NCBI GenBank assembly: GCA_965227275.1
Contig: CBDDFU010000001.1
Span: 3,076,979-3,140,978 of the forward strand
Length of the DNA: 64,000 bases
Direction of reading: 5' to 3'
Source: Pirellulales bacterium
GTDB taxonomy: Bacteria; Planctomycetota; Planctomycetia; Pirellulales; JAEUIK01
A program made the position numbers and the translations under genes. The notes under the pieces were generated by a model that was not told where the DNA came from, ran no database searches, and saw only the letters and a program-made list of their open reading frames with translations. This document shows, in pieces, positions 3,655-58,724 of this stretch; positions within the stretch are counted from its first letter, which is position 1, and every line of letters starts with the position of its first letter.

Positions 3655-3841
3655 AGAATCGCGTCGCGAATCGACGCCCGGGGCTATTAACGGTTACCTG
3701 CATGACGAGGCCCTCTCACTTGAAGACAAGAGGGCCAAACACTCATGCTAAACCGGTACGAAGTGCGAACCAAGTAACAGTTGGTCCAGCCGCCAAGAGT
3801 AGGTCTGTCACGGGGACCGTGGGTGTTACAACCCTTAGAAT

Positions 3842-11771: not shown

Positions 11772-11923
11772 CGCGATGGTCCTCTCGTTGCGCGGAAGTC
11801 GATACCAAAGGGTTATCGTGAACCGAGCGACGCGAGAAAGCAAGCAGTGAGCATGTTGCGGCAGACTGTTTGGTATCTGACGCATGAACATGAGTGGATC
11901 GCGGAGAGATACTTGGACGCCAC

Positions 11924-12100
11924 GGCCGGCTTGTCCAACGGTACAGCATTCGCATCAAAACAACTCGACAGAATGTGTCGTGTGCCCCGAGGTTTTCACC
12001 CATCGGCGCACCCTGTCGAGATCACGTGGCTGCCGTGATCAATCGTCGCAATCCGCTGACGCTTACTGCTGCCCCTCACCAATGGACAAGCCAGCCGTGG
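11924..12100. repeat. degenerate relative of the same repeat family, copy C
   Basis: The left arm is GGCCGGCTTGTCCAACGG and the right arm is CACCAATGGACAAGCCAGCCGTGG. It shares an exact 13-mer TGGACAAGCCAGC and the 10-mer GGCTTGTCCA with copies A and B. The spacer is longer (about 135 bp) and has its own hairpin ATCACGTGGCTGCCGTGAT. Confidence 0.45.
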
Positions 12101-12221
12101 CATCCAGGTACCACAAGCGTGCTCATGACTCTTCATGAAAGCCCCCGGAATGCCGAAGTGCGGCACTCCGGAGGCGTAATCGCCTTGGTAAGCCCGATCG
12201 CGGGAGATCGGGTGGGTACCA

Positions 12222-42539: not shown

Positions 42540-42729
42540 GACATATTCTCGTTGATCGAATCGTAGGTCAGTTGCGCCGGCCTTACTCCATGACACCGGG
42601 GCGAACACTTGGGTTCAACCGGGCAGGGCAGTCAAAACTGCACGCCAAGCGAAGGGTGGAAAAGTTTACTCCCGAGCCACAAACGCGGCAAACCCCGATT
42701 GCAGAGACGGTCTAGAAGTGGACAGATAG

Positions 42730-42924
42730 CCCAGCCGCATGTCGGCTGGGTCGACGCAGTCGACAAGACGCCCTGTGTGGAAGTTGCAATCGGAATAAAA
42801 GTTAGGGCTCGCTACCTGTTTTCCCGCCGCACGGGTGCCCTGACAAGCCGGATCTTGCTTGTCGTGTGATACGCACTTCAGAGCATCTTGTCGCCAAGGG
42901 CGACCCAGCCGACATGCGGCTGGG
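42730..42924. repeat. perfect 21-bp inverted repeat pair (each arm itself palindromic) flanking 153 bp; MITE/BIME-like
   Basis: CCCAGCCGCATGTCGGCTGGG at 42730..42750 and its exact reverse complement CCCAGCCGACATGCGGCTGGG at 42904..42924 lie in the dapF-Rieske intergenic region. Confidence 0.6.
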
Positions 42925-42995
42925 CTACCCCGAGGTGTGATGAAGACTCGTATTCCCTGGACAGGCAGAACACGACTGTTGTCCATGCGACGTCG

Positions 42996-43304: not shown

Positions 43305-43484
43305 GAGCAACGTGCGGTTTCAGTAACAAGGTAAGGTCAGCGAAGTCTCGGGCTTGCCACTCACCCCGCGGGGAGTTGATTGGCCAACGCAGGGATCTGA
43401 GTCTACCGACGCGACCGTTGATGGTCCATTGTCTCCGCGGCAGGGGAGTGTCCCAAGATCGTGTTGATTGAGGTAAGAATTCCC

Positions 43485-43621
43485 GGGTGCCTCCGCTGGC
43501 TTGTCCAGCGGTGAAAACTGGACAGAAGAGCAGGTCAATTCAAGAGGGTCGTTGCACGAACGGCTATGTGGCGCTCTGAACACCCAGCGTAGGCACCGCT
43601 GGACAAGCCAGCGGTGGCACC
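43485..43621. repeat. intergenic palindromic repeat element, copy A (hairpin-containing inverted arms around an 81-bp core)
   Basis: The left arm GGGTGCCTCCGCTGGCTTGTCCAGCGGTG (43485..43513) and the right arm CACCGCTGGACAAGCCAGCGGTGGCACC (43594..43621) are reverse complements of each other. Each arm also folds on itself (CCGCTGG-CTTGT-CCAGCGG). Homology to copy B continues for about 20-45 bp outside both arms. Confidence 0.8.
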
Positions 43622-43798
43622 AATCCATCATGCAGAGTCTTCAGACAACGGGAACTTAGGAGCCTACCCCCGGCAGGGTTCACCATCCGGCGAACCCCCT
43701 CGCGGGACTTGCGAGGCCGCGCTTGGTGTGAAACACTGCTGGCGATTCAATTCCAGCGAAGTCACTTTCAATACCACCGATGAGGCGAGCCTTCGACC

Positions 43799-44596
43799 AT
43801 GAGAACCAATCCTGTCAAACGCAAACTTCAGGCCGGCGAACCAAGCTTCGGCACCTGGCTTTCGTTGGGTGATTTGTATGCCACGCGGGTGTTGGCACGC
43901 ATGGGCTTCGACTGGCTTACCCTCGACATCGAACACTCGGCCATCGATTGGTCGCAAGCCGCCATGATCTTCGGGGCGATTGCCGACGCCGGCTGTGTCC
44001 CGTTGGCGCGTGTGCCGAAAGGGAATCACGATTACATCAAGCGAGTGCTCGACGCAGGCGCTTGGGGAATTGTGGTGCCGATGGTCAACACGGTCGAGCA
44101 GGCCAAGATTGCGATTGCCGCGGCCAAGTATCCGCCGGAGGGCAATCGAAGTCTGGGCGGCGGCATGCACGCCATGAACTTCGACACCACGGCTGGTGAG
44201 TACTATCAGAAGGCCAACGACGAGATTCTCGTCATCCTGCAAACCGAAAGCCCCACCGGTGTGCAAAACGCCAAGGAGATCTACTCGCTGCAAGGGGTCG
44301 ACGCCATTTTCGTCGGCCCGGTCGATCTCAGGGCCAACATGCGAGACGACGATGGTACCGAGGCCACCGACGAAGAATTCGAAGAGACGCTGGCCCGGAT
44401 CATCGCGATCGGCCGCGAGACGGGCACTCCGACCGGGATGCACACGATGGATGCCTCCGCGGCATTGGCTCGCGCTGAGCAGGGCATGCAGTACATCGCC
44501 ATCGGCAGCGATTTGCGGCTGATGACCGTGGCGGCCAGTGAAGTCATCGCGAAGGTCGCCCCGGACGCGGCCGGCAAAGAGTCGGCCAGGTACTAA
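43799..44596 (+). CDS. HpcH/HpaI-family aldolase
   Basis: It has a TIM-barrel aldolase pattern ([28 protein letters not shown] ... [11 protein letters not shown] ... FVGPVDL). Confidence 0.8.
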
Positions 44597-44638
44597 GCCG
44601 TTTCGCCAAACGCTTCGATTTTCCGTGGATAGTGCGCC

Positions 44639-45868
44639 ATGAGTGTCTTTGTCCTTGCCACGCTCGATACGAAAGGGCAGGAAGCGCAGTATTTGTGTCG
44701 CCGCCTTCGCGATTTAAGTGTCGAAGTGTGTCTGGTCGACACGGGCTGTGTCGGTTCACCTGCGGTCGCAGCCGACGTAAGCCGAGAAGAACTCTTTGCC
44801 GTCGGCGACTTCTCGCTGGCCGAACTGCAGGCTCAGGGCGACCGCGGCAAAGCAATCACCGCTGCCGCCACTGCCGCTGCCGCGTTGCTGCGACGCGAAC
44901 ATGCCGCTGGCAAAGTCGACGGGGTGTTGGGCATCGGCGGATCGGCAGGTTCCACGATTGCCACCGCCGCGATGCGGGCGCTTCCTCTGGGGGTGCCGAA
45001 ATTGATGGTCAGCACCTTGGCCTCCGGGCAAGTGCGACAGTATGTCGGCGACAAAGATATCTTCATGCTCAACTCCGTGGTCGACATCCTCGGGCTGAAC
45101 CGCATCAGCCGAACCGTCTTCGACGAAGCCGCCCGGGCGATGGCCGGCATGGTTACACTCGAACTCGACGAACACTTCGGCGACGATCGACCGCTGGTGG
45201 CTGCCACCATGTTTGGGGTGACCACCCCCTGCGTGGAACGAGCGCGAGAAGTGCTCGAAGAGGCCGGATTCGAAGTCCTGGTTTTTCACGCCACCGGAAA
45301 TGGCGGGCAAGCAATGGAGTCCCTCATTGCAGAGGGGCTAGTTGCCGGGGTGCTCGACATCACCACCACCGAACTAGCCGACGAGTTGGTTGGCGGCTTC
45401 CTCAGCGCTGGCCCCAAACGTCTTACGGCCGCTACCGAACATGGCATCCCGCAGGTTGTCTCCGTGGGGGCGACCGATATGGTGAACTTTCACGGGCCGG
45501 ATACCGTTCCTCCGCAGTTCGCCGATCGCCTGTTCTACGAACACAATCCGACCGTCACCCTGATGCGGACAACGCCCGAGGAAAATCAACGCATCGGTGC
45601 GGATATTGGCCGAAAGCTTGCCCCCGCGGGAAGTCGTGCCGTCGTCCTCTTGCCGCAACGAGGCGTGTCGGCGATTGACGCCGAAGAAAAACCGTTCAAC
45701 GACCCACAGGCCCGAGCCGCGTTGTTCACCGCGGTGCAGGAAAACGCCGGCAACGTGGAGTGCCGCGTTCTCGATAACCACATCAACGATGCGGTCTTTG
45801 CCAAAACGGCCGCCCAGGAACTCATCACCTTGATTCGACAGACATCGCCGGGGAGCTGCACCGAATGA
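44639..45868 (+). CDS. UPF0261 (Tm-1-like) family protein
   Basis: It has the family-typical N-terminus [16 protein letters not shown] and Gly-rich loops. Its stop overlaps the start of the next gene by 4 nt. Confidence 0.75.
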
Positions 45869-46698
45869 GTTTGTTCTCGCGTGAATCCATTCTCAGCAAG
45901 CTACGGGCAAAGGTCGAATCGGGACAGCCGATCATCGGCGGAGGTGCGGGTACCGGGATCAGCGCTAAACTTGCCGAGGCCGGCGGCATCGATCTGCTGG
46001 TCATTTACAACTCCGGCCGGTTTCGAATGGGAGGACGCGGTTCACTGGCCGGGCTGATGCCCTACGGCGACGCCAACGGAATTGTTATGGATATGGCACG
46101 CGAGGTGTTACCCGTCGTCAAGCACACTCCCGTGTTGGCAGGGGTCTGCGGAACGGATCCGTTTCGCGTGATGAAGCTTTTTCTGGCAGAGGTCGATCGA
46201 CAAGGATTCTCCGGCGTTCAGAATTTTCCCACGGTGGGGCTGATCGACGGAACGTTCCGAGCAAACCTCGAAGAAACTGGAATGAGCTTCGGTCTCGAAG
46301 TTGACATGATCCGCGTGGCCCACGAAATGAACTTGCTGACGACCCCTTATGCCTTTAATCCCGAAGAGGCCACCTCGTTGGCCGAGGCGGGGGCCGACAT
46401 TCTGATTCCGCACATGGGGTTAACCACCAAGGGTTCGATCGGTGCCGAGACGGCGCTCACCCTGGAGGAATCGGCCAAGCGTGTGCAAGCGATGCATGAT
46501 GCTGCCAAGCGGGCGAACCATGAGATTCTGGTGCTTTGCCACGGCGGGCCGATTGCCGAACCAGAAGACGCCCAATACATCTTGGACCATACCGAGGGCA
46601 TCGTGGGATTCTACGGCGCCAGCAGCATGGAACGCTTGCCGGTGGAACCCGCCATCACCAATCGGGTCCGCGAGTTCGGAGCGTTGCGTTTCTCCTAG
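45865..46698 (+). CDS. phosphoenolpyruvate-hydrolase-like TIM-barrel protein (usual partner of UPF0261)
   Basis: The pattern is [33 protein letters not shown]... The pairing with UPF0261 is a known conserved gene pair, and the two are fused in plant Tm-1. Confidence 0.75.
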
Positions 46699-46850
46699 CG
46701 CCATCATGCCAGCGTTCGGCAATCTTCGATCGCTAGCATCCGCTGCGTTGCTCCATCGTTTTGACCTTGGCCGCGAAGCGGCAGTTCTGATAAGGTCCGC
46801 CGCGGGTATTCTCCCGCATTCCACTTTCGTGGTTACTCATCTACCGGCTT

Positions 46851-47561
46851 ATGGCGAAATCGATGGCGTCTCACATTCTTTCGTGGAACTCGACTGTCTT
46901 GCTGTGCGCGTTGGCCGCAATTTGTTCCGGCTGCGCGGACATGCCGCGCCCGCCGTGGGCCTCGAAGAAATCCGACGAAGAAGACATCCAGATCAGCGGG
47001 GTCAGAAACCCTTCGCTCGAGCTCGAAGAGCTCAAAGATCTGGCCAAGGATGCCAAGAAAAAAGATGCCACCGAGCAGGAGGCGATTTCGCAGCAGTTGG
47101 CCCAACGGCTGGCCGCCGAAAGCGATCCCGTCATTCGGATCGCGTTGATCCGCACGTTGGCAGCGTATCCGACATCCACAGCCACCGTGATGCTGAAGCA
47201 GGGGCTGCGCGATGCGGACAAGGACGTGCGCGTGGTTTGCTGCGAGGTGGTAGGAGAACGCCGCGATCCCGAGAGCGGGCGTCTGCTTGCCGAGGTGATC
47301 GCTTCGGACACCGATATCGATGTGCGGTTGGCAGCCGCACGGGGCCTGGGCGAACTGGAAGACAAGTCGGCCGTCGATGGGCTTGCCCTGGCATTGGACG
47401 ACCCAGACCCCGCCATGCGGCGCCGGGCTATCACTTCGCTGCAAAACGTCACGGGCCGCGAGTACGGGGGCGATATCACTGCATGGCGGCAATATGTCCA
47501 AGGCAACGAGCCCCAAGTCGACACGCCTTCGCTGGCTGAACGCTTCCGCGACATCTTCTAG
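46851..47561 (+). CDS. HEAT-repeat lipoprotein
   Basis: It has a lipobox AAICSGC and repeated PBS-lyase/HEAT-like units (DPVIRIALIRTLAAY, DVRVVCCEVVGE, DIDVRLAAARGLGEL, DPAMRRRAITSL). Confidence 0.65.
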   Translation: MAKSMASHILSWNSTVLLCALAAICSGCADMPRPPWASKKSDEEDIQISGVRNPSLELEELKDLAKDAKKKDATEQEAISQQLAQRLAAESDPVIRIALIRTLAAYPTSTATVMLKQGLRDADKDVRVVCCEVVGERRDPESGRLLAEVIASDTDIDVRLAAARGLGELEDKSAVDGLALALDDPDPAMRRRAITSLQNVTGREYGGDITAWRQYVQGNEPQVDTPSLAERFRDIF

Positions 47562-48010
47562 CCAATCTGAGCCGTATTGCTCAGCCTCGTTTGGCGGGGA
47601 AACCCTTGGTGTTGTCACTACGAGAAGCCTGAAGGGTTATGCGGCTGGCAGCAGGCAGCGCCACACTTGCAGCGCAAGCCGTCTGTTCTCCCATGAGCGT
47701 CTGGGCAAACTCTGCTGGCCAGTTCCCAGGTGGCCGATGTCAATGCATCTCGCCGACCCGGTACAAACGATTTCTCTTGAAATCTCTTGGGGCGGTTCCG
47801 GGCGAAACTCACCACGATCCTTTGGACTTCGCGTGCGAGAGTTCCGATACCATTGCTACTACGTAATCGCAGAGCAGGTCTCGCAAGGCGGGCCAGCGTT
47901 GCCCGCTTGCGTGTTGACACAGGAGATCGGTTCCCGGCGACAGCGGATGTCGGCGAAGCACTCCAATGTTCAGAGCGCGACGTACCACCCTCCCCGAAGA
48001 AGGTTCCAGG

Positions 48011-49540
48011 ATGAGTTCACGTTTCGGCACCAAGTTGCTGGCATGCGTCACGCTGCTATCACTACCACTTAGTTCCACGCTGCTGGCAGAAGAAGATTCC
48101 CGAGATGCGTCCACCAGAGAGCGATCTTCTTATAGCGAGATCTGGGCTCAGGCCGCTTCGTACCCGAGGGGAAGCCGAGGGATCTATCGGCAATCGCCGC
48201 AACGCACCGAGCGGACCTCGCGAGCAGATCGGCCCGATCGGTCGAATGAGCCGAACCTCGGCGGTGCCGCGAACCGCGTTCTCAGAACCGGCATTCGCTC
48301 CGTCAGTCTGACGGGACTGGAAAACAAAATCGAGCATGTGCTCGAAATGTACCATAAGCGTCTGTTGGACACTTCGAAAAACGATCCGTGGGAGGTGATG
48401 CACGGCATCATCGCCTACGGTTGCAATACAAACCTTGGTCGTGGACGAGGTGCCAAGCCGGTCAACGCCATTTCGTATGTTGCCTGGAACGGGCCATGTG
48501 CCGGTGATCGCCTGCTGTACACCAATGGCGATCGGCTCGAAGCACGCAAGGGCCCGAGGGTGCAAGGTCACTACGGGCAATTCCTGGCCATCTTGGCCCA
48601 GTCGCGCGTCAAGTCGGATTACCCGTTGCTTGTCGACAACAAGCAGTTCACGATTGCCGATCTGGTCGAGTCAGAGAAGCTGGGTTGTCGCGAGAATACC
48701 GAGCTGACCTTCAAACTGATTGCTCTGACGCACTACCTGGGTAGCGACGCCACTTGGAAGAACGACCTAGGAGAAGACTGGTCGATCGAACGATTGATCA
48801 AAGCGGAAATCGGTTCGACCATCCAGGGTGCCGCTTGCGGCGGTACCCATCGTCTGACCGGCATCTACTACCCCGTCGAGCGTCGGTTGAAGGAAGGCAA
48901 GCCAATCACCGGCGAGTATCTGCGGGCTCAGAAATACACCCACGACTATCAACGTTACGCCTTCAGCCTGCAAAACCCCGATGGCAGCTTTAGCACCGAG
49001 TGGTTCAAACGACCCGGCAACCGTCAGGACGTCGACCGCAAAGTGAAAACCACTGGCCACATTCTCGAGTGGTTGACCTTCACTCTCTCGGATGAAGAGC
49101 TGCGAGCCCCCAAGACCGTGAAGTGCGCCAACTTCATCGCTTCGGTTCTGCTGGCCGAGCCAAGTCGTGAATGGGAAATCGGCCCACTGGGGCACGCCAT
49201 TCACGCGTTGCAGCTCTACGGTCAACGGGTGTATCACTCGCCGACCTCCACACCGGCCGAGGAAGAGAACCCAATCGCGGATGCCCCCAAGAACCCGCCG
49301 AAAGTCGCCCGTCGTCGCAAGAGCGAACCGGTGGAAACAGCGGACAAAGTTGAAACGGCCACCGAGGTAGACATCGACGAGGTCGCCGAAGAGCCCGAAA
49401 CCGACGAGGTGAGCGAAGACGCCGCCTCCGAATCGGACGAAGCCGAGCAGTCAGAGCCGGAAACTCAGGAGGAACCTGAGGAAGCCGAACCCGCTCCCGC
49501 CGTTCAAGGTCCGGTTCTCTTCCAGCCCCTCTCGATCTAA
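48011..49540 (+). CDS. secreted hypothetical protein with polyacidic C-terminus
   Basis: The start was set at MSSRFGTKLLACVTLLSLPLSSTLLA (a signal peptide). The C-terminal 90 aa are Glu/Asp/Pro-rich. Confidence 0.5.
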   Translation: MSSRFGTKLLACVTLLSLPLSSTLLAEEDSRDASTRERSSYSEIWAQAASYPRGSRGIYRQSPQRTERTSRADRPDRSNEPNLGGAANRVLRTGIRSVSLTGLENKIEHVLEMYHKRLLDTSKNDPWEVMHGIIAYGCNTNLGRGRGAKPVNAISYVAWNGPCAGDRLLYTNGDRLEARKGPRVQGHYGQFLAILAQSRVKSDYPLLVDNKQFTIADLVESEKLGCRENTELTFKLIALTHYLGSDATWKNDLGEDWSIERLIKAEIGSTIQGAACGGTHRLTGIYYPVERRLKEGKPITGEYLRAQKYTHDYQRYAFSLQNPDGSFSTEWFKRPGNRQDVDRKVKTTGHILEWLTFTLSDEELRAPKTVKCANFIASVLLAEPSREWEIGPLGHAIHALQLYGQRVYHSPTSTPAEEENPIADAPKNPPKVARRRKSEPVETADKVETATEVDIDEVAEEPETDEVSEDAASESDEAEQSEPETQEEPEEAEPAPAVQGPVLFQPLSI

Positions 49541-49633
49541 GCCGCCGTGCTGATCTTTCTGACCACGCACCTTGTGGTGCGGAACTTCTCGCTGAACTTG
49601 AGACGAAGCCTGAAGGCTGTTCAGGCAATCTCG

Positions 49634-52600
49634 CTAAAACGCCGGAGTGTTGACTGCCCTGGGATGGCAACTGCGAGCTTTGTAGCCATGGCGATTGAGA
49701 TACTCTTGGGTCAGTTTCGCACAGCGTTTCCATTCTTCGTTGTCAATTTCACGCTTCCGCTGGTTGATCCGTTTCATATCGTCTGAAAGAAACTCGGCGA
49801 TGAGTGGGGAGTAGTTCGCCCAGCGTCCGTAAGCACGGGGGCCAAGCGTGATGTCGCTGGCGACGCCGGCAGGGGTCATGTACTCATAGGTGTTGACCGT
49901 GAGTAATTTCATGCCGGGTTTCAGCCCGTACTTGACGACGAACGAGTTGGGATATTCGAGCAGCACTACGCAATCAAACTCGCCCGAGAACGCTGCCACA
50001 CGTAGCGGCTTTACCGAAGCGACCATCGCCGCACGACTGTCGCCGTATAGCAGATGTTCTTTGATGTGCAGTCTCCAGAACTTAAGGCCTTTGCGATTTC
50101 GGACCTTGAAGATAAGGCCCGGGATGTCGTTTTCGGGAAAGAGTTCCGGGTCGAGAACACGGAGCTTATCCAAGGAAAGCACGACGCCGCCAGGATCGCT
50201 GGCAACCACTTCGTTGTTCATCGTCTCCGATTGCTGCGGCTCGGTGGTGCGTGCGTCCGACGATTTCTCTTTCTCTCGCGACTTTGGTTCGGGTAGTCCT
50301 GCGGCCACCTCGGCACGAATCGCTATTTGGGCCAGCCCGGCAAGAAGACGGAAATAGAAGGTCGACATCCGCTCGAGTATCTGGCTGGCCGCGTCGCTGA
50401 CCTTTCCGATATCGTGATGCTCCGGCACCGTGGGTAACGCATATCGGGCGACCGTCCTCACGCCTTCAGCATGTTCATAAGGGTAGGGGACACGCTTGAG
50501 CGTTTCGAAGAGTACGTGCATTTGCTGCATCATCGGAGGAAGCTGTTCCATCAGAAGCGGCAGCACGTTTTGTTTCTTTCCTGTTCCCTCGTCGACATAC
50601 GAAGCGAGTGAGGCGACAAACTGCAACTGCATCAATTGGATCTCAAGCGTGGCGAGCTGCGGAATCGACTTCTCTACTGCCCTGGCAATTGGCATCAATT
50701 GGGCCAAGCGGCGCCTGAGCGTTTCTTCCTCCTCCATGTGCGCCACAATTTCGGGGCATTTGAAGGACGCCAGCGCTGTGGAAAACCGCTGCATCGACAC
50801 CTTCTCATAGCGCGTAAAAACCGCTTCGACTTCGGCTAACTCCGCCTTGGCCTGAACGACAAACCTCTTAGCACCGGACTTTTTGATGTCGTTCGTATGG
50901 AGAAACTCGGGGGGCAAGCGTAGCTTCGCGCTGAGGGCACGTGTCGCGGCCACCGCGGAGGCCAAACGATAGCGAGCGTTGTTCAATCGCTCGCAACCGG
51001 CTTCGTATTCGTGCCGCGATTTCTCCATCCGCTGCCGCAGCGCGGTCAAGGCTCGTGCAAGCGACTCACGATCGTCCGTCGGAGTAACTGAGACGTTGGT
51101 CATTCCCAGGGAACGTGGCCAGGCAAGCGACCCGCCGAAGAACGATACGGCCGCTGCGTTCTGCGCTCCGTGGGCCTTCTTGCCGCGGATGAGCTTCGAA
51201 ACTTCAATCAGATGCGCTTGCTCGATGCTCTCGCCCAAAAACTGGCGGTAAAATTCGAGTGTTGTTGTCCGCGAAATCGCCTTGAAATTGCTGAATAGCT
51301 CCCGCGCCGGCCGTTCATCGGTGAAGATGCCCGGAGTTGGATTGGCTTCCACGAGAGCCACACGTTCTCGGGACGAAGGGTGCGTGTCGAATTTTCCGGT
51401 TTCTTCTTTGGCATATTGCTCATCAATTGCTTTTAAAACCTCAGCGTCCAGTTGGTCGACCGAAGCAATCACCAGCCCGGGCAGATCGTTCACGAGACGT
51501 CCCTCGGACCACATGTTAGCCAGATCGTTGTGGGCCAGGGAATCGGCCACCGAGAGAATTCTCATTCGCCTTGTTGTTGTTTCGAATACATCGCTTCCAG
51601 CTACCTCCGCTTCGTATCGATCGGCATCGAACTCCATTTGGCGCATGGTGTAACGACTGACGCGGTAGCCGGTCATCATCAGCAGCCACAAGAATCGACG
51701 TGTGCCCCAGATCAGGCCCCGCGCAATCTGTAAGACGAATACATAGCGCATGTCAGTCGATTTCGACCAGCGGTCCAATCGATCGTCCCATTTGTCGCGC
51801 CCATAGACGACTCGTGAGAACCAGGTGTTGATGCGGTTGACTATGTACGTAAGTCGCATGGAGCTTCCTTGCGAGAAGTGTCCAAGTTCGTGCGACAAGA
51901 CACCGGCAAGTTGTCGTAAGCTAAAATCCGCGACCAATGGCAATCCGATGATCAGTTGCATGTCACGTCGAATGAAAGCTCGCAGCGTGGTTCCAATTCG
52001 AGCGGCCGCGTTCACATTGATGTCCACGAAGATCTGCGTCGGGACGGGAGCGCCAGTCACCTCACAGAGGCGATGGACAAAGGCAAACAACAACGGCTCT
52101 TTCTTCGGGTCAAGCGCCTGTGGCTCCGTGTATTGCGAGCGCCGCGCCAGTAGCGGTTTCAGAAGGAAGAACAGCAGAATGGGACCCACCAGCAACGTAG
52201 CAGCATACATCTTGGTCACGCTGCGGCCTTCGTCGGCGATTAGCTGTAAAGGAAGAAAGTACAGGAATAGCCAGCCCACAAGGATCGTTAGCCCAATATA
52301 GATCGTAGGCAGCAGTAGCATCACAGCGGCGGTCAGCACGACTCCCAGCCGGTAGCCGATTGTAAGGCTCGGGGATGGGATCTTGCCGTTGATTGCAGCG
52401 AGAATGGAATCTGCCCGTTGCTGTCGTGTTTCAGTCCGGGCATGCGATCGCGTCTTTTTGCGTTGCGGTGCTTGAGCCGCTGGCTTTGTCGAAGTCGGCT
52501 CTGAAGTCTCAGTTGCTATCGAAACTCCACTGACTGAATTTCCCTTTGCCGGGGCAGCGTGTTGTTTCAGTGGTGGCACGACCAAGGGACCACCGCATTC

Positions 52601-52684
52601 GGGGCAGGAGCCTCGCTTCCCGGCGTACTTTTCCTTAATGTTCAGGACCGTTTGACACTGGGAGCATGTCGTTTGGATCGACAT
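49634..52684 (-). CDS. zinc-ribbon / M48-family metalloprotease membrane protein with large C-terminal domain
   Basis: The protein is 1016 aa. The N-terminus has a CxxC...CxxC zinc ribbon (CSQCQ...CPECG), then TM helices and the HExxH motif VLSHELGHF. The roughly 550-aa helical C-terminal region has no recognised motif. Confidence 0.75.
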   Translation of the reverse strand: MSIQTTCSQCQTVLNIKEKYAGKRGSCPECGGPLVVPPLKQHAAPAKGNSVSGVSIATETSEPTSTKPAAQAPQRKKTRSHARTETRQQRADSILAAINGKIPSPSLTIGYRLGVVLTAAVMLLLPTIYIGLTILVGWLFLYFLPLQLIADEGRSVTKMYAATLLVGPILLFFLLKPLLARRSQYTEPQALDPKKEPLLFAFVHRLCEVTGAPVPTQIFVDINVNAAARIGTTLRAFIRRDMQLIIGLPLVADFSLRQLAGVLSHELGHFSQGSSMRLTYIVNRINTWFSRVVYGRDKWDDRLDRWSKSTDMRYVFVLQIARGLIWGTRRFLWLLMMTGYRVSRYTMRQMEFDADRYEAEVAGSDVFETTTRRMRILSVADSLAHNDLANMWSEGRLVNDLPGLVIASVDQLDAEVLKAIDEQYAKEETGKFDTHPSSRERVALVEANPTPGIFTDERPARELFSNFKAISRTTTLEFYRQFLGESIEQAHLIEVSKLIRGKKAHGAQNAAAVSFFGGSLAWPRSLGMTNVSVTPTDDRESLARALTALRQRMEKSRHEYEAGCERLNNARYRLASAVAATRALSAKLRLPPEFLHTNDIKKSGAKRFVVQAKAELAEVEAVFTRYEKVSMQRFSTALASFKCPEIVAHMEEEETLRRRLAQLMPIARAVEKSIPQLATLEIQLMQLQFVASLASYVDEGTGKKQNVLPLLMEQLPPMMQQMHVLFETLKRVPYPYEHAEGVRTVARYALPTVPEHHDIGKVSDAASQILERMSTFYFRLLAGLAQIAIRAEVAAGLPEPKSREKEKSSDARTTEPQQSETMNNEVVASDPGGVVLSLDKLRVLDPELFPENDIPGLIFKVRNRKGLKFWRLHIKEHLLYGDSRAAMVASVKPLRVAAFSGEFDCVVLLEYPNSFVVKYGLKPGMKLLTVNTYEYMTPAGVASDITLGPRAYGRWANYSPLIAEFLSDDMKRINQRKREIDNEEWKRCAKLTQEYLNRHGYKARSCHPRAVNTPAF

Positions 52685-53536
52685 ATTCAGTCATTGAGAG
52701 AGATGTTCGGACGGGACACGGAAATTCAAACTAGCAACCCAAAAACGCCGCGACAATGTTTTTCTTCAAGACAAGAACCACCAGAGAGAGCCGATGGCGT
52801 AAATACGAATGCCCCGCCCTGGGTACGTTGTGCGCCTCTGAATTTCTGGGGCGAGACGTTCCCGCTTCATACAAAGAGTTTCCCGACAACTCAGTTACCG
52901 CAGGCACAATTCCGTGGCTTCCGAGCAGGCAGCTTCTTGAGTAAGTGGCGCTGCCATTGAGTTTTAGTTCATCCGCCGAACCGTATCTCACGTGGGAGTC
53001 AGGAGAGCGAACTGAAAATAGAGCAATTCCTCCTTCGGGCGATTCTTTACAACAAGTACGTTCCCTTTAGCACTGCTAGATGGAGTTCGAATCCAGCAAG
53101 TCCCGCGTTTTCAATCACTTCCACAGCTTTCTGTTCTGCGAATGGCCATGAACGACCCATTCCGGGGACTCTTTTCGATCATTGAGTACTCCCGGTGGCC
53201 GAAGTCTTCTCAGAATTTCTCAGCTCAAAGGGGCCCAATTCGCACAAGTGCCAGGGCTCCAATCGACCCCAATGCTCGACCTGCGCTTGCCGGTAGATTA
53301 GAGTTTTAGAATCGGAGCTCGCTGCCGGTTCGTGGTTGGGTTCTCCATCGATGGCTCGTCCCGCGGGCAGCCACTTGCACGATGGGGAGGACTCTCCTCG
53401 ACTTGCCCCTACCCCTGGCTCCGATTGGTGGGTCATGCTCCGAGAGTTCGCTCCCTGAACCTCGGAAACTGCACGGTAACCCCGTCTCGATTGCCCGCCA
53501 GAGGTACAGATCCACCAAGTCAGAGGTCACGATCGG

Positions 53537-54775
53537 ATGCTGCAATTCGTTGGACTTGCCGTCTCGCTTCTCGTTGGTGTTGCCGCCACGCCTGAAGGTT
53601 CTGATTCAAGTATGTTTGAACTGAAAGACGGCGACCGCGTCGTCTTCCTGGGCAACACGCTCATTGAACGTGCGGCACAATATGGCTACATCGAAACCCA
53701 GCTCACTCGCGCGAATCCAGATGCGAACATTATCTTTCGCAACTTGGGTTGGAGTGGCGATACGGTGTGGGCCGAATCGCGGGCCGGCTTCGATACCCCG
53801 GTCGAAGGATTCGAGCGGCTCAAAGAGTCAGTCATGGTGGCCAAGCCCACGTTGATCTTCGTGGGCTATGGCGGCAACGAAGCTTATGCCGGGGCTCGCG
53901 GACTCCCAAACTATCTGGCTGGTCTGCAACGGCTACTGCGAGTGCTTGACGAAACCGAAGCACGCATCGTGCTTCTGTCGCCAATTCGGCATGAAGACCT
54001 CGGACGCCCTTTGCCCGACCCTCAACCGCATAACAAGAATTTGCGGCTGTATGCGAACACCATGCGGAACATCGCCCGGCAGGAGGGATTGGGGTGGATC
54101 GAACTCGAGCCGGCACTCTCGGTTCAGGCCGTCGCGCAGCCATCACTTCCGCTGACCAACAACGGCATGCACTTGAACGACTACGGATATTGGCGGGCCG
54201 GTGAAATCATCGCCCAAAGCGGAGGCCATCCGTCGACGAGCTGGCAAGTTTCCATTACTGCCAATGGAGAACTGAACCATACAAGCGGGACCCAGGTTGA
54301 AGAAGTCGCTTCCACCGATGGCGGTTTGAAGTGGAAGGCTCTCGACGAGCGGCTGCCCGCCCCGCTCAATCCGCAAGCAACCTCGCACAGCAGCGGCTCG
54401 GAGTCGCACGGTCGCGTGCTTCGAGTCACCGGGCTGACCGAGGGTGACTATCAGTTGAGCATCGACGCTGAGCCGGTCTGCTCAGCCACGGCCACTCAGT
54501 GGAACGAAGGGGTTCCGATGACTATTGGTCCGGAGTTCGCTGCCACCGAAGAACTTCGACAAGCGATTCTCAAGAAGAATGAGCTGTTCTTCTATCGCTG
54601 GCGCCCCCAGAACACTACGTATCTGTTCGGGTTCCGCAAGCACGAGCAAGGGAACAATGCTGCGGAGGTCGCCGAGTTCGACCCGTTGGTGGCCCAGCAG
54701 GAAAAGAAAATTGCCCAGCTACGCAAACCGGTGGAGCACGTTTATGAGTTGACCCGCATCGACGGGCAGAACTGA
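53537..54775 (+). CDS. SGNH-hydrolase-family protein (Planctomycete-type)
   Basis: It has a GNTLIERA block, GWSGDT, and an NDYGYW/HLND catalytic block. It lies upstream of the PVC heme-binding protein. Confidence 0.7.
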   Translation: MLQFVGLAVSLLVGVAATPEGSDSSMFELKDGDRVVFLGNTLIERAAQYGYIETQLTRANPDANIIFRNLGWSGDTVWAESRAGFDTPVEGFERLKESVMVAKPTLIFVGYGGNEAYAGARGLPNYLAGLQRLLRVLDETEARIVLLSPIRHEDLGRPLPDPQPHNKNLRLYANTMRNIARQEGLGWIELEPALSVQAVAQPSLPLTNNGMHLNDYGYWRAGEIIAQSGGHPSTSWQVSITANGELNHTSGTQVEEVASTDGGLKWKALDERLPAPLNPQATSHSSGSESHGRVLRVTGLTEGDYQLSIDAEPVCSATATQWNEGVPMTIGPEFAATEELRQAILKKNELFFYRWRPQNTTYLFGFRKHEQGNNAAEVAEFDPLVAQQEKKIAQLRKPVEHVYELTRIDGQN

Positions 54776-54846
54776 TGAACGTCTTCGCACAAATTTTGCA
54801 CGAGCCCGAACTTACCCCACTATCGATCAATCAACTTTAAACGAAC

Positions 54847-57800
54847 GTGACAAACATGCGTCGTAGCAATCGCACCTGGTTCACTCCGTTACTCATCGTG
54901 GTGGCTGTACTTTGTTCAGTTCCCGCGTACGCTCAACGCGACTTGAAGGACATCCCGGTACCGGACCCGGAACGGGAACGGAGCGAGCTTCAATTGGCCG
55001 ACGGTTTCGAGATCAGCCTGTATGCTGCCGACCCGGAGATTGCCTCTCCGATTCAGATGAACTTCGACCCTCAGGGACGACTTTGGATCGCCAGTTCGAA
55101 CACCTATCCTCACATCGCCCCTGGCGACGAGGCCGACGACAAAGTGCTCGTCCTCGAGGATCGTGACGGTGATGGCGTTGCGGAAAAGTCGACCATTTTC
55201 GCACGGGGTCTGCTGATTCCAACCGGGATCGCGCCCGGCGATGGTGGCGTGTATGTGGCGAATAGCACCGAGCTGCTCCATATGCGCGACACCGATGGCG
55301 ATGGCGTCGCCGATGAGAGCCGAGTGGTACTTTCCGGCTTTGGCACTGAAGACACGCACCACATACTGCACACGCTACGATGGGGGCCCAACGGTCTGCT
55401 GTATTTCAACCAGTCGATTTATATTCACAGTCACATCGAAACCCCTTGGGGCGTTCGCCGGTTGGATGCGGGCGGGATCTGGGAGTTCCGGCCCGAATCG
55501 CTCGAACTCGACGTGTTCGTTCGCGGTTTCGTGAACACCTGGGGCCATGACATCGATCGCTGGGGGCAATCCTTCGCGACCGATGGGGCAGGGGGTGAGG
55601 GAATCAATTACTTGTTGCCGGGTGCCAGCTACGTCACGGCCAAGGATGCCAAGCGAATCCTGCATGGACTCAATCCCGGCAGTCCCAAGTACTGCGGTGC
55701 GGAAATCGTCGACGGACGACACCTTCCCCAAGACTGGCAAGGCAACATCATCACAGCCGACTTCCGTGCGAATCGGGTTTGCCGCTTTGTGATCTCCGAA
55801 GACGGTGCCGGCTATGCGGCGCAACAAATGCCCGACCTGGTGGGTTCATCGAACGTGGCCTTCCGCCCGGTTGATATCAAGCAGGGGCCCGACGGCGCGA
55901 TTTACATAGCCGACTGGTACAACCCCATCATCCAGCACGGCGAGGTGGATTTTCGTGATCCCCGCCGCGACCATATTCATGGTCGCATCTGGAGAATTAC
56001 TTGCAAAGACCGCCCCATTGTCGAGAGGCCCCAACTCGTTTCGGCCCTAACTTCCCATCTGCTCGAACAGCTAAGATCGCCGGAAGGATGGACGCGACAG
56101 CAGGCCAAACGGGTGCTTCGCGAACGCGGCGACGAGATCCTGCCCGAGTTGGGCCACTGGACCGCCTCGTTGGACACGGCCGATGACGAATTCGAGCATC
56201 AGCAGCTCGAAGCCCTGTGGATGTACCAATCGCTCGACATCGTGGACCCCGCGTTGATCGAATCAGTGCTTAACTCCGCCGAACCGAAAGCTCGAGCTGC
56301 CGCGGTGCGCGTGTTGGGACACTGGCACACCAGGCTCGACAATCCCCTGGTGTTGTTAACACCTGCCATCAACGACGAACACCCCCGGGTTCGACTGGAG
56401 GCTGTACGCACCTTGGCCAAGATCCAAAAGCCGCAAAGCATGGAGATCGCCTTGCGAGCACTGGACCGCCCGATCGACCAATTCCTCGATTACGCCTTGT
56501 GGCTTACGTCTCGCGATTTGAAGCAAAGCTGGCTGCCGGCGCTCGAGGCCGGAGAGTTCGACCTCGACGTGAACCCGGAGCATCTGGAGTTTGCCCTGCG
56601 AGCCGTTGATTCGCCCACCGTGGTCGATCCGCTGCTGAAGCTCATCGCCGAAGGTCAAGTTCCTGCCGAGCGACAAGCCGCGGTGCTCTCGCTGGTGGCT
56701 TCCTTGGGCGACTCCAATCAGTTGGCCGCCGTACTCGAATTGGCGATGAATACCGAAGGCGACATCGACGCCGAGCAGCGATCACGGTTGTTAGAATCGC
56801 TTGTGAAGGCAGCCAGAATGCGCGACGTACGGCCCGCCGGCGATCTGAACGCGGTGGCCGCATTGCTCTCGTCCGAGATTCCTGCCTTCCGCGCCGTGGC
56901 TGCCCGGGCCGTGGGTGCCTGGAAACTTGAACAAGCTCGCGAAGTGTTGGCAAGCATGGCCTTTGACAACGAGCTCGATTTTCCGTTACGACGGGCGGCC
57001 ATGGACGGGCTCACATGGCTGGGCGGGGGCGACAGTCGCGAAGCACTGCTCGAACTTTGTCAGGGCGAGAACGATATCAATATTCGAAAGTTGGCCATCG
57101 TTCGCCTGGCTTCGCTCGACCTGGGGGCAGCCGCCCAACAGGCCGTGGCCTGGTTAGCCGATGCGGGCAGTAACGACCCCTCCGCGGTCATCACGGCATT
57201 CCTTCAACGCAAAACCGGTCCCGAAGCACTGGCCGCCGCCTTGAATGAGCAAACGTTGCCGGCCGACGTTGTGAAGCTGGCTCTCCGAGCAGTCCGCTCG
57301 ACCGCTCGTGACCATCAAGCCCTGGAAGCGGCACTGGCCGTCTCCGGCGGGCTTGGTTCTCCGGTTAGTCCTCCGACCCCAAAGGAACTTACGCAACTAG
57401 TGAGCCTGGTTCTCGAAAGAGGCGACCCCACGCGAGGGCAAGAAGTTTATCGACGTGAAGATCTGGCATGCATGAAGTGTCACTCCATTGCCGGATCAGG
57501 TGGTCGCGTTGGTCCCGATCTATCGAGTATTGGTGCCAGTGCTCAGGTCGATTACCTGATCGAGTCGCTGCTGGTGCCCGGCAAGGCGGTGAAAGAAGCC
57601 TACCACTCGCTCATCGTCGAGACCGATGAAGGGCAGATTGTGACCGGCATCCAAGTGCGTCGCGACGATCAAGAGCTGGTATTACGGGATGCCGAAGATC
57701 GCGAGTCCGTGATTCCGCTAAGCTCCATCGAAGAAGAGTCGATCGGTGGCTCGATCATGCCCGCAGGACTGGTCGATTCACTGACGCAGGCCGAATTGGT

Positions 57801-58308
57801 CGACCTGGTTCGCTTTTTGTCCGTGCTCGGGAAGCCTGGCGAATTCGCCGTGGGGAATGTCCCGAAAGTCCGCACATGGCGCGTGTTGGCAGCCACCGAC
57901 GAGAACGCCTTTGTCCTGCGTCGCAAGGGGTTCCAAGCCGCCGCGACGGCACCCGTCGATCTTGTCTGGAAGCCGGCCTACAGTGTGGTTTCCGGTGAAT
58001 TGCCCACTGCGGATTTGCCCGTCATCAAAACGCAAGGCAATCAGCCGAGCATCGCCGCGGCTCAGTTCGAATTGGTGGTTTCCACTCCTGGTGAAGTCGA
58101 TTTTGGATTCAATACACCTGTCGGACTCACCATGTGGATCGACGGAGAGCCTACCGCCGCTACAGAACGTGTTTCGTTGGAACTCGACCGTGGCCGACAT
58201 GTGGTTACCTTGGTGGTCGATGTCAGCGAACGTAGCGCCCCGCTTGCTTGCACGCTGCTGCCCAACCCGGAATCCCCGGCCAGGGCCCAACTCGGCGGAG
58301 GCAAGTAG
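54847..58308 (+). CDS. PVC-type CxxCH heme-binding protein with dehydrogenase-like propeller and HEAT repeats
   Basis: The protein is 1153 aa. It has a signal peptide and an N-terminal glucose/sorbosone-dehydrogenase-like region (DGDGVAD, WGPNGLLYF). The middle has HEAT/ARM repeats. The cytochrome c motif is CMKCHSIAG. Confidence 0.85.
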   Translation: MTNMRRSNRTWFTPLLIVVAVLCSVPAYAQRDLKDIPVPDPERERSELQLADGFEISLYAADPEIASPIQMNFDPQGRLWIASSNTYPHIAPGDEADDKVLVLEDRDGDGVAEKSTIFARGLLIPTGIAPGDGGVYVANSTELLHMRDTDGDGVADESRVVLSGFGTEDTHHILHTLRWGPNGLLYFNQSIYIHSHIETPWGVRRLDAGGIWEFRPESLELDVFVRGFVNTWGHDIDRWGQSFATDGAGGEGINYLLPGASYVTAKDAKRILHGLNPGSPKYCGAEIVDGRHLPQDWQGNIITADFRANRVCRFVISEDGAGYAAQQMPDLVGSSNVAFRPVDIKQGPDGAIYIADWYNPIIQHGEVDFRDPRRDHIHGRIWRITCKDRPIVERPQLVSALTSHLLEQLRSPEGWTRQQAKRVLRERGDEILPELGHWTASLDTADDEFEHQQLEALWMYQSLDIVDPALIESVLNSAEPKARAAAVRVLGHWHTRLDNPLVLLTPAINDEHPRVRLEAVRTLAKIQKPQSMEIALRALDRPIDQFLDYALWLTSRDLKQSWLPALEAGEFDLDVNPEHLEFALRAVDSPTVVDPLLKLIAEGQVPAERQAAVLSLVASLGDSNQLAAVLELAMNTEGDIDAEQRSRLLESLVKAARMRDVRPAGDLNAVAALLSSEIPAFRAVAARAVGAWKLEQAREVLASMAFDNELDFPLRRAAMDGLTWLGGGDSREALLELCQGENDINIRKLAIVRLASLDLGAAAQQAVAWLADAGSNDPSAVITAFLQRKTGPEALAAALNEQTLPADVVKLALRAVRSTARDHQALEAALAVSGGLGSPVSPPTPKELTQLVSLVLERGDPTRGQEVYRREDLACMKCHSIAGSGGRVGPDLSSIGASAQVDYLIESLLVPGKAVKEAYHSLIVETDEGQIVTGIQVRRDDQELVLRDAEDRESVIPLSSIEEESIGGSIMPAGLVDSLTQAELVDLVRFLSVLGKPGEFAVGNVPKVRTWRVLAATDENAFVLRRKGFQAAATAPVDLVWKPAYSVVSGELPTADLPVIKTQGNQPSIAAAQFELVVSTPGEVDFGFNTPVGLTMWIDGEPTAATERVSLELDRGRHVVTLVVDVSERSAPLACTLLPNPESPARAQLGGGK

Positions 58309-58422
58309 TCCCCGCAGCAGAAAGCCATCGACGTCATCCTCCACGTGCCGTGACGACAATTCGGTTCGATTGATCTCGCGTTGCCGTATTCTAAGGTCGC
58401 GTCAATTGATGGAAGAATTAGC

Positions 58423-58558
58423 GGGTGCCGCCGCTGGCTTGTCCAGCGGTGAAATCAATGGGAGAGAAGATCGATTCCAAAAAGGCCGCTCCATCAACGG
58501 CTACGTGTCCCTCTGACCGCCTAACGTAAACACCGCTTGACAAGCCAGCGGAGGCACC
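58423..58558. repeat. intergenic palindromic repeat element, copy B (same orientation as copy A)
   Basis: The arms GGGTGCCGCCGCTGGCTTGTCCAGCGGTG and CACCGCTTGACAAGCCAGCGGAGGCACC are about 95% identical to copy A. The spacer is about 65% identical and includes the conserved block AACGGCTAYGTG..CTCTGA. Confidence 0.8.
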
Positions 58559-58724
58559 CAATCACCGCGCGAGGTCTTCAGAATACGGGATCCTAGAAGC
58601 ATCTCGCGTCGCGGGCGACATTGCCGATTCACGGGCAAGCCTTTAGGATAGGGAGCAACTTGCTGAAAACTTCAGCGAGGCTCGCTGCTTACCAAACGTT
58701 CACACTTGCTCGAAGCCCACGCGG

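Follow-up and report, generated by a model that had tools for sequence, protein, structure and literature searches.

We analyzed a 64,000-nt stretch of a Pirellulales bacterium genome (GenBank assembly GCA_965227275.1, contig CBDDFU010000001.1, positions 3,076,979 to 3,140,978; hereafter the window) which holds three palindromic elements, A, B and C, every one of them intergenic. It is likely that A, B and the decayed C are non-autonomous doublets of repetitive extragenic palindromic (REP) sequences, similar to the REP doublets forming hairpins (REPINs), and that they belong to a REP family of Planctomycetota whose arms flank genes encoding REP-associated tyrosine transposases (RAYTs). An initial annotation of the window had favoured, for A and B, a family resembling REPs or miniature inverted-repeat transposable elements (MITEs). 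Our results support this proposal and sharpen it to REP doublets, with arms that flank RAYT genes in related genomes.

Structure of the palindromic elements

Elements A and B had been described as two hairpin-bearing palindromes in the same orientation. Both statements are borne out: the cores lie at 43486-43621 (A) and 58424-58558 (B), 14.9 kb apart and identically oriented, with inverted arms that each contain the hairpin CCGCTGG-CTTGT-CCAGCGG (7-bp stem, 5-nt loop). In the core doublet of A (136 nt, + strand), the left arm GGTGCCTCCGCTGGCTTGTCCAGCGGTG (43486-43513; 7-bp stem, 5-nt loop) and the right arm CACCGCTGGACAAGCCAGCGGTGGCACC (43594-43621; 9-bp stem, 5-nt loop) are 28 nt long, 96% complementary and separated by a spacer of 80 nt (43514-43593). 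The arms of B (58423-58451 and 58531-58559, also on the + strand) measure 29 nt, are 93% complementary and surround a spacer of 79 nt; its right arm has one stem mismatch (TTGACAAGCC). The stem reaches 9 bp in the right arms (CACCGCTGG / CCAGCGGTG).

By aligning A and B we found that the arms are 93-96% identical, the spacers 67% and the flanks of about 40-47 nt 67-68%, with a drop to 45-55% further out. The whole unit spans ~220 nt in A (43446-43666, + strand, approximate ends) and ~219 nt in B (58382-58600, + strand), with an overall identity of 74%. The flanks beyond the arms are homologous between A and B and also partly complementary, so that each unit is a long imperfect palindrome. Accordingly, the initial description of the two copies as near-identical is adequate for the arms but not for the spacer, the flanks or the whole unit; the homology of the spacers (previously put at ~65%), which includes the shared blocks AACGGCTAYGTG and CTCTGA, and the similarity past the arms were both confirmed. 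RNA fold prediction, which had been suggested for these palindromes, gave single-strand folds of -95 (A) and -80.8 (B) kcal/mol, far better than those of shuffled sequences (z = -6.5 and -4.9, respectively). As DNA, the cores gave z values of -7.5 and -7.1, and a single arm forms a hairpin of -14.2 kcal/mol (z = -5.9).

Allowing up to 3 mismatches, the 19-mer core of the arm occurs six times in the window, against 0.03 occurrences expected from shuffles. A profile built from 70 family arms recovers exactly six arms, those of A, B and C, and zero singlets. Copy C (11910-12110) is a degenerate doublet of the same family, with 85% complementary arms at 11910-11942 and 12078-12110 and internal stems that are partly broken. 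Its spacer of 135 nt is unrelated to those of A and B, the arms being all that it has in common with them, and it sits in a ~950-nt gap without recognisable open reading frame (ORF) that runs from a PLD-like gene to an alpha/beta-hydrolase gene.

Distribution and conservation of the REP family

Judging from the sequences retrieved, the family is widespread in Planctomycetota, with the arm present in multiple copies in many planctomycete genomes and metagenomes. Among the conditions that would refute the initial annotation was a genome holding A and B as its sole copies; copy C already adds a third within the window. We scanned one genome per species for the exact 19-mer and obtained 86 stretches, mainly from Pirellulaceae and other metagenome-assembled genomes (MAGs) of Planctomycetota. 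Single MAGs often gave many contigs, and the matches often lay at contig ends. Most of them showed the core in another context, gaatc-core-aWtgttcggYttctSgCTAC, that is, in a REP tagged with CTAC (= GTAG), and just three carried the GGGTGCC flank of the window type. We observed CTAC-tagged REPs with the exact 19-nt core in Mariniblastus, Pirellula, Pirellulaceae MAGs and one Persicimonas MAG (e.g. L022 278-362, L035 6474-6626 and L053 1115, among loci L001-L086), in some cases in tandem arrays with a period of 66 or 135 nt. Because these REPs contain the exact core, REP families with different tags share one hairpin, including its loop.

A metagenome scan with the window-type arm GGTGCCNCCGCTGGCTTGTC yielded 56 loci. 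Their arm consensus is (c/t)G-GGTGCCACYGCTGGCTTGTCCAGCRGTG, and the arm consists of 28 nt in which a 5' GGTGCC tag is followed by a hairpin with a 9-bp stem and a 5-nt loop. It also occurs as singlets, at times as a full hairpin with a 14-bp stem. We counted at least 13 distinct metagenome doublets with inverted arms; their spacers, 22-130 nt long, are not related to one another in sequence, and similarity among family members stops at the outer GGGTGCC / GGCACCC. At stem position 4, 34 of the 37 arms that were not picked by the scan patterns have T-A, and all four arms of A and B have C-G. Such a double compensatory change indicates that the hairpin itself is under constraint and, together with the identity of the arms (93-96%, versus ~67% elsewhere in the unit), argues that the arms are kept by selection. 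In a scan of viral contigs, the mainstream arm GGGTGCCACTGCTGGCTTGTCCAGCAGTG was also present in a few IMG/VR contigs classed as viral (L155, L158, L160, L162 and L163), which are probably planctomycete chromosomal or proviral sequence. A literature search for the core as a text string returned no paper.

The arms could also be read as paired operators of a dimeric DNA-binding protein, with palindromes ~10 helical turns apart and DNA looping between them. Each arm is indeed palindromic, and the centre-to-centre distances (103 bp in A and B, 156 bp in C) are near whole helical turns. However, the family spacing of 22-130 nt shows no phasing, and both the loop, which is not palindromic, and the GGTGCC tag at the outside are invariably inverted. 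Besides, the arms form tandem arrays and flank transposase genes, and the sites are not conserved at orthologous loci (see below for the latter two points), so that we give this explanation very little credence.

Association with RAYT genes

The link between the arms and a transposase came from loci L088, L091 and L132, in which two arms 328 nt apart enclose an ORF matching the NCBIfam model NF047646 (REP-associated tyrosine transposase) with E = 3e-4, a weak but specific match. Searching Pfam and the PDB sequences for the L088 fragment gave nothing useful; a homologue search with the same fragment retrieved proteins of ~200 amino acids, many of them with PF01797. Among these, P0006, P0007, P0011 and P0016 scored 82-88 bits against NF047646 (cut-off 80) and 17-23 bits against the IS200 model NF033573, below its cut-off of 55. 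By these scores they are RAYTs and not ordinary IS200 TnpA proteins. Their HUH motif is PEHVHL and their tyrosine motif DYLHHNP. The RAYT family is large: a cut-off of E <= 1e-3 gives 4,864 cluster representatives, and one of E <= 1e-30 gives 142.

We then inspected the genes in their context in L144, L145 and L146, three contigs from separate assemblies. On all of them the RAYT gene is bracketed by inverted arms, the left one ending ~13-43 nt before the start codon and the right one beginning 15 nt past the stop codon. The ORF called in L144 overlaps the arm, and the start supported by homology lies ~15 nt beyond it. More doublets are found near RAYT genes, with 8 arms in 6.6 kb in L146. This organization is the REP-RAYT-REP arrangement that defines such systems.

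Several loci also seem to record how gene-less doublets arise. The L088-type doublet (1956-2339 in L088, likewise in L091 and L132) is an internally deleted RAYT gene between two arms, with residues ~1-77 joined to ~176-200. A doublet in L145 (3824-3988) retains the last 16-17 RAYT codons, and L146 shows tandem left arms with the RAYT leader (2192-2478) and tandem right arms with the RAYT 3' end (3621-3704). These loci are apparent intermediates between transposase-bearing and gene-less elements, and the deleted gene of the L088 type and the C-terminal relic in L145 imply that some doublet spacers are decayed transposase genes. The spacer of A gave no significant similarity to RAYT gene ends. 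We also considered the A/B spacer (AACGGCTAYGTG...CTCTGA) as a relic of a RAYT 3' end and discarded it, as the MAFFT alignment was suggestive but not significant against shuffles.

Comparison with related genomes

The window lies on a contig of ~6.75 Mb. Relatives were located through the proteins HpcH and diadenylate cyclase (DAC). The closest one is a single Logan contig (L150/L165), with 88-90% nucleotide identity in HpcH and DAC. The others are L147 (93% amino-acid identity in DAC), L148 and L149 (85-86%) and L152/L153 (89% in HpcH). All relatives share the gene order DapF-Rieske-HpcH-UPF0261-PEP_hydrolase-HEAT-secreted-GDSL-DUF7133-DAC, and BLASTN colinearity with the closest one is broken only four times over 20 kb. 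Two of the breaks coincide with our elements: window 43434-43694, with A, corresponds to 30 nt in L150, and window 58309-58600, with B, corresponds to 66 nt in L165. After the latter, homology restarts at 58601, the exact end of the similarity between A and B. The remaining breaks correspond to an unrelated doublet (window 42700-42988 versus 33 nt) and to an M48 peptidase gene (window 49548-53268 versus 163 nt), both described at the end of the text.

At site A the relatives (L150/L165, L147, L148, L149 and L152) are shorter than the window by ~231 nt, and at site B by ~226 nt; element B is missing in L165, L147, L148 and L149. Once the elements are subtracted, intergenic lengths match those of the relatives (223 versus 225 nt, and 293 versus 298 nt). 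We detected zero family arms in ~70 kb of these relatives. Within their intergenic regions, A and B occupy the least conserved middle and leave the conserved gene-proximal blocks untouched. Since the relatives keep the gene order without A and B, synteny indicates that both are recent lineage-specific insertions, acquired after the split from the ~89%-identical relative, and that the 14.9-kb block between them is native.

Regarding L087, a contig from Logan SRR26803926 that encodes an identical DAC protein and comes from the same or a near-identical strain, we observed that it starts at window 58531. Its start falls exactly at the right arm of B, which, along with the genome-scan matches at contig ends, suggests a multi-copy repeat. 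L087 was also the only one of all fetched loci to match the flanks and spacers of the A/B type.

Given their similarity, direct orientation and distance of 14.9 kb, A and B might be taken for the two extremities of a composite transposon, or of a genomic island, carrying the eight enclosed genes, a possibility that the initial annotation already disfavoured. The synteny of the block in relatives that lack both elements rules it out. Furthermore, A and B are each a separate ~230-nt insertion, and the Pfam scan confirmed that there is no transposase within the block.

The same comparison bears on a regulatory role. A and B lie, in the same orientation, upstream of + strand genes: the HpcH gene for A and the DAC gene for B. 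Together with their very stable predicted folds and with the AACGGCTAYGTG and CTCTGA blocks conserved between them, this location would fit cis-regulatory or small RNAs controlling the HpcH operon and the diadenylate cyclase gene, the small-RNA alternative put forward in the initial annotation. Yet the elements are missing at the orthologous sites of all relatives examined, where the gene-proximal blocks are conserved regardless, and this is a strong argument against a conserved regulatory RNA. Apart from the arms, copy C has nothing in common with A and B; the arms themselves turn up in hundreds of unrelated settings. Rfam searches returned nothing at gathering score, and permissive thresholds only gave sub-threshold models of miRNA-precursor hairpins. 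Finally, B lies upstream of the likely DAC promoter (58621-58649) and is thus unlikely to be within the 5' untranslated region (UTR) of DAC. According to these results, the small-RNA proposal finds no support and we consider an RNA function very improbable.

Flanking direct repeats and mode of insertion

We searched for direct repeats within +/-120 nt and compared them with 200 shuffles. The best candidate for A is the 8-nt CGGCAGGG (43438-43445 and 43671-43678, + strand), which 38 of the 200 shuffles equalled (19%), and for B the 9-nt ATCTCGCGT (58373-58381 and 58601-58609, + strand), which was equalled by 4 (2%). The second copy of the B repeat begins exactly where homology to the relatives restarts (58601). 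Sliding-deletion alignments gave a flat score landscape, with several equally good placements, and did not fix the ends of the insertions. Target duplications directly beside the arms were found in none of 15 doublets, and a wider repeat search was mixed in outcome, with most results at chance level.

Longer repeats, which also hint at target duplication, were present at two other loci. In L145, a direct repeat of 82 nt (2877-2958 and 3652-3733; 80 of 82 positions identical) abuts both sides of the REP-RAYT-REP unit and looks like a very long target duplication. In L111 (381-1850), an IS4-family element (DUF4372 + DDE_Tnp_1, ends CACTGCTGTCCCGTTAA) lies within a REP doublet, flanked by a 55-nt direct repeat of the doublet centre (50 of 55 identical); the terminal 8 nt of this insertion sequence are REP stem sequence.

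One could argue that A and B represent classical MITEs and owe their mobility to a DDE transposase, in which case a staggered cut would leave 8-9-bp target duplications and the hairpins would be part of the inverted repeats. The repeats CGGCAGGG and ATCTCGCGT at the edges of the A/B homology would agree with this, as would indel sizes equal to the unit plus ~8-12 nt, inverted repeats whose complementarity continues past the arms, and the IS4-family DDE element among such arms in L111. Nevertheless, the repeats are weakly significant, the insertion ends are not uniquely placed, and doublets of other genomes show no adjacent duplications. The arms of the family, moreover, flank Y1 transposase genes in three genomes, and we found no further DDE gene with them. 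The IS4 transposase of L111 was rejected as a parent element, since it occurs once among the loci, has its own ends (CACTGCTGTCCCGTTAA) and is best read as an insertion into the doublet. Hence, an origin as DDE-mobilised MITEs seems improbable to us.

Some of our observations weigh against the interpretation of A, B and C as RAYT-mobilised REP doublets. By tblastn, there is no RAYT in the window. The arms that flank RAYT genes are of the CACTGCTGG variant and those of the window of the CACCGCTGG variant; a window-type arm does lie ~140 nt from the stop codon of a 38%-identical RAYT in L038, but a different hairpin, tagged with GGCACCC, stands on the opposite side of the gene. The tag of our arms is (G)GGTGCC, neither GTAG nor CGTC. 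The inserted unit (~220 nt) is also longer than the doublet (136 nt), and the best-fitting indels (232-235 nt for A and 227-229 nt for B) amount to the unit plus ~8-12 nt. In addition, the 8- and 9-nt repeats of A and B occupy equivalent positions, 40-49 nt outside the arms, and resemble a target-site duplication, a product not expected of enzymes of the IS200/IS605 type (PMC2817692).

If the REP doublet interpretation is correct, the recognised unit would be the ~28-nt REP, composed of the GGTGCC tag and the hairpin with its 9-bp stem and 5-nt loop. Two inverted REPs and their spacer would fold into a long hairpin in single-stranded DNA; a single-copy gene at another genomic locus would supply the HUH/Y1 RAYT, which would attach to the REP hairpins on the single strand and spread copies of the doublet to further intergenic sites. 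On the model of IS200/IS605 and of the REP-RAYT systems of E. coli and Pseudomonas (PMC3116915, PMC2817692, PMC3733652), we infer that the source genome has a cognate RAYT, which would have moved A, B and C. Should the flanking repeats be genuine, the duplication might stem from cuts that are staggered or directed by hairpins, in cruciform DNA or at replication forks. It is unlikely, though, that this family inserts with target duplication, unlike the duplication-free peel-and-paste of IS200/IS605-type Y1 enzymes. Local effects, such as a hairpin at the 3' end of the DUF7133 RNA and its influence on stability, would be incidental, and A possibly widens the spacing of the divergent Rieske and HpcH promoters.

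Relation to known systems

DDE transposases mobilise MITEs of the kind of Correia elements, ERIC and RUP, whose target duplications (TA and the like) are defined. Our elements resemble them in being small, non-coding and intergenic, with terminal inverted repeats and insertion polymorphism, but their arms correspond to sequences flanking an HUH transposase gene, and their 8-9-nt repeats are candidate duplications. In IS200/IS605 elements, the ends are not mutual inverted repeats, and insertion occurs 3' of a fixed tetra- or pentanucleotide without duplication. Like the present family, they use a transposase of the Y1 HUH type, for which subterminal hairpins in single-stranded DNA are the recognition sites; the two hairpins here, unlike theirs, are inverted copies.

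The REPIN architecture goes back to work on Pseudomonas fluorescens SBW25 (Bertels and Rainey 2011, PMC3116915), where it was defined. As in SBW25, the whole unit forms a long hairpin, the REPs are better conserved than the spacer, the copies lie outside genes, a Y1/HUH transposase gene is bracketed by the same REPs, and presence or absence varies among related genomes. The differences are a GGTGCC tag instead of GTAG, another REP sequence, a longer hairpin (9-bp stem), a conserved unit of ~220 nt, maybe with flanking direct repeats of 8-9 nt, and spacers that in some cases are visibly deleted RAYT genes (L088 and L145).

For Planctomycetes, REP families accompanied by flanking tyrosine transposase genes were already described in 2013, in Rhodopirellula baltica (Di Nocera et al., PMC3733652). 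Our family resembles the REPs of E. coli, which form bacterial interspersed mosaic elements (BIMEs) and are served by TnpA-REP, the GTAG and CGTC REPs and the TIRtrons in having tagged stem-loops that occur as monomers, inverted dimers and clusters. With neither tag of the GTAG and CGTC super-families, it comes closer, in the terms used there, to the self-complementary "TIR" (terminal inverted repeat) sequences that flank TIRYT genes. It appears to be a new example of the known REPIN/REP-RAYT kind, and its tag, sequence and spread appear to make it an undescribed member, as judged from the tags of the described super-families.

These results account for a striking palindromic repeat with no need for regulation or for a transposon that carries genes, and mean for annotators that such ~220-nt hairpins are recent selfish insertions. 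They also document a GGTGCC-tagged REP/RAYT family in Planctomycetota, a phylum in which hardly any elements of this sort have been described. The family could be used as a strain-typing marker, to explain assembly breaks, and as a series for the origin of REP doublets from transposase-bearing elements. If the flanking duplications are real, they would offer a test of how Y1 transposases disseminate REPs.

Other features of the window

The unrelated doublet at 42727-42927, contained in the first break (window 42700-42988, 33 nt in the closest relative), has 49-nt arms with 86% complementarity and a spacer of 103 nt. Its arms start with ATAG, followed by the hairpin CCCAGCCG-CATGT-CGGCTGGG, and it resembles a dimer of GTAG-type REPs.

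Pfam models matched in the enclosed block and its neighbours were HpcH, UPF0261, PEP_hydrolase, HEAT, M48, GDSL, DUF7133/HEAT and DacZ_P+DAC. Most of the gene labels given initially were confirmed in this way; the exception is the "PVC heme protein", which is a DUF7133/HEAT protein in which Pfam found no heme or cytochrome domain. For the ORF of 524 amino acids at 47966-49540, earlier labelled as a secreted protein, Pfam gave no match. Within the 3.7-kb segment 49548-53268, which is missing in L150, lies the M48 peptidase gene (49634-52684, minus strand); in L150, the GDSL hydrolase gene directly follows the secreted-protein gene, with 163 nt between BLAST blocks.

Scans for sigma-70 promoters and terminators around A and B gave nothing above chance, and a sigma-54 promoter reading of TGGCAC, made by eye, was dropped because neither the spacing nor the -12 element fits. 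Just downstream of B, the motif TTGCCG-17 nt-TAGGAT (58621-58649) is conserved in L147, L148, L149 and L165; it is one match below the threshold of the scan tool and is probably the promoter of the DacZ-type diadenylate cyclase gene. Upstream of HpcH by 50-100 nt, at 43698-43748, we found a conserved hairpin, CCTCGCGGGACTTGCGAGG, and a near-invariant block, GTGTGAAACACTGCTGGCGATTC. Both are retained in L150 and L152, which lack element A, and may be the promoter or 5' leader of the HpcH-UPF0261-PEP_hydrolase operon.

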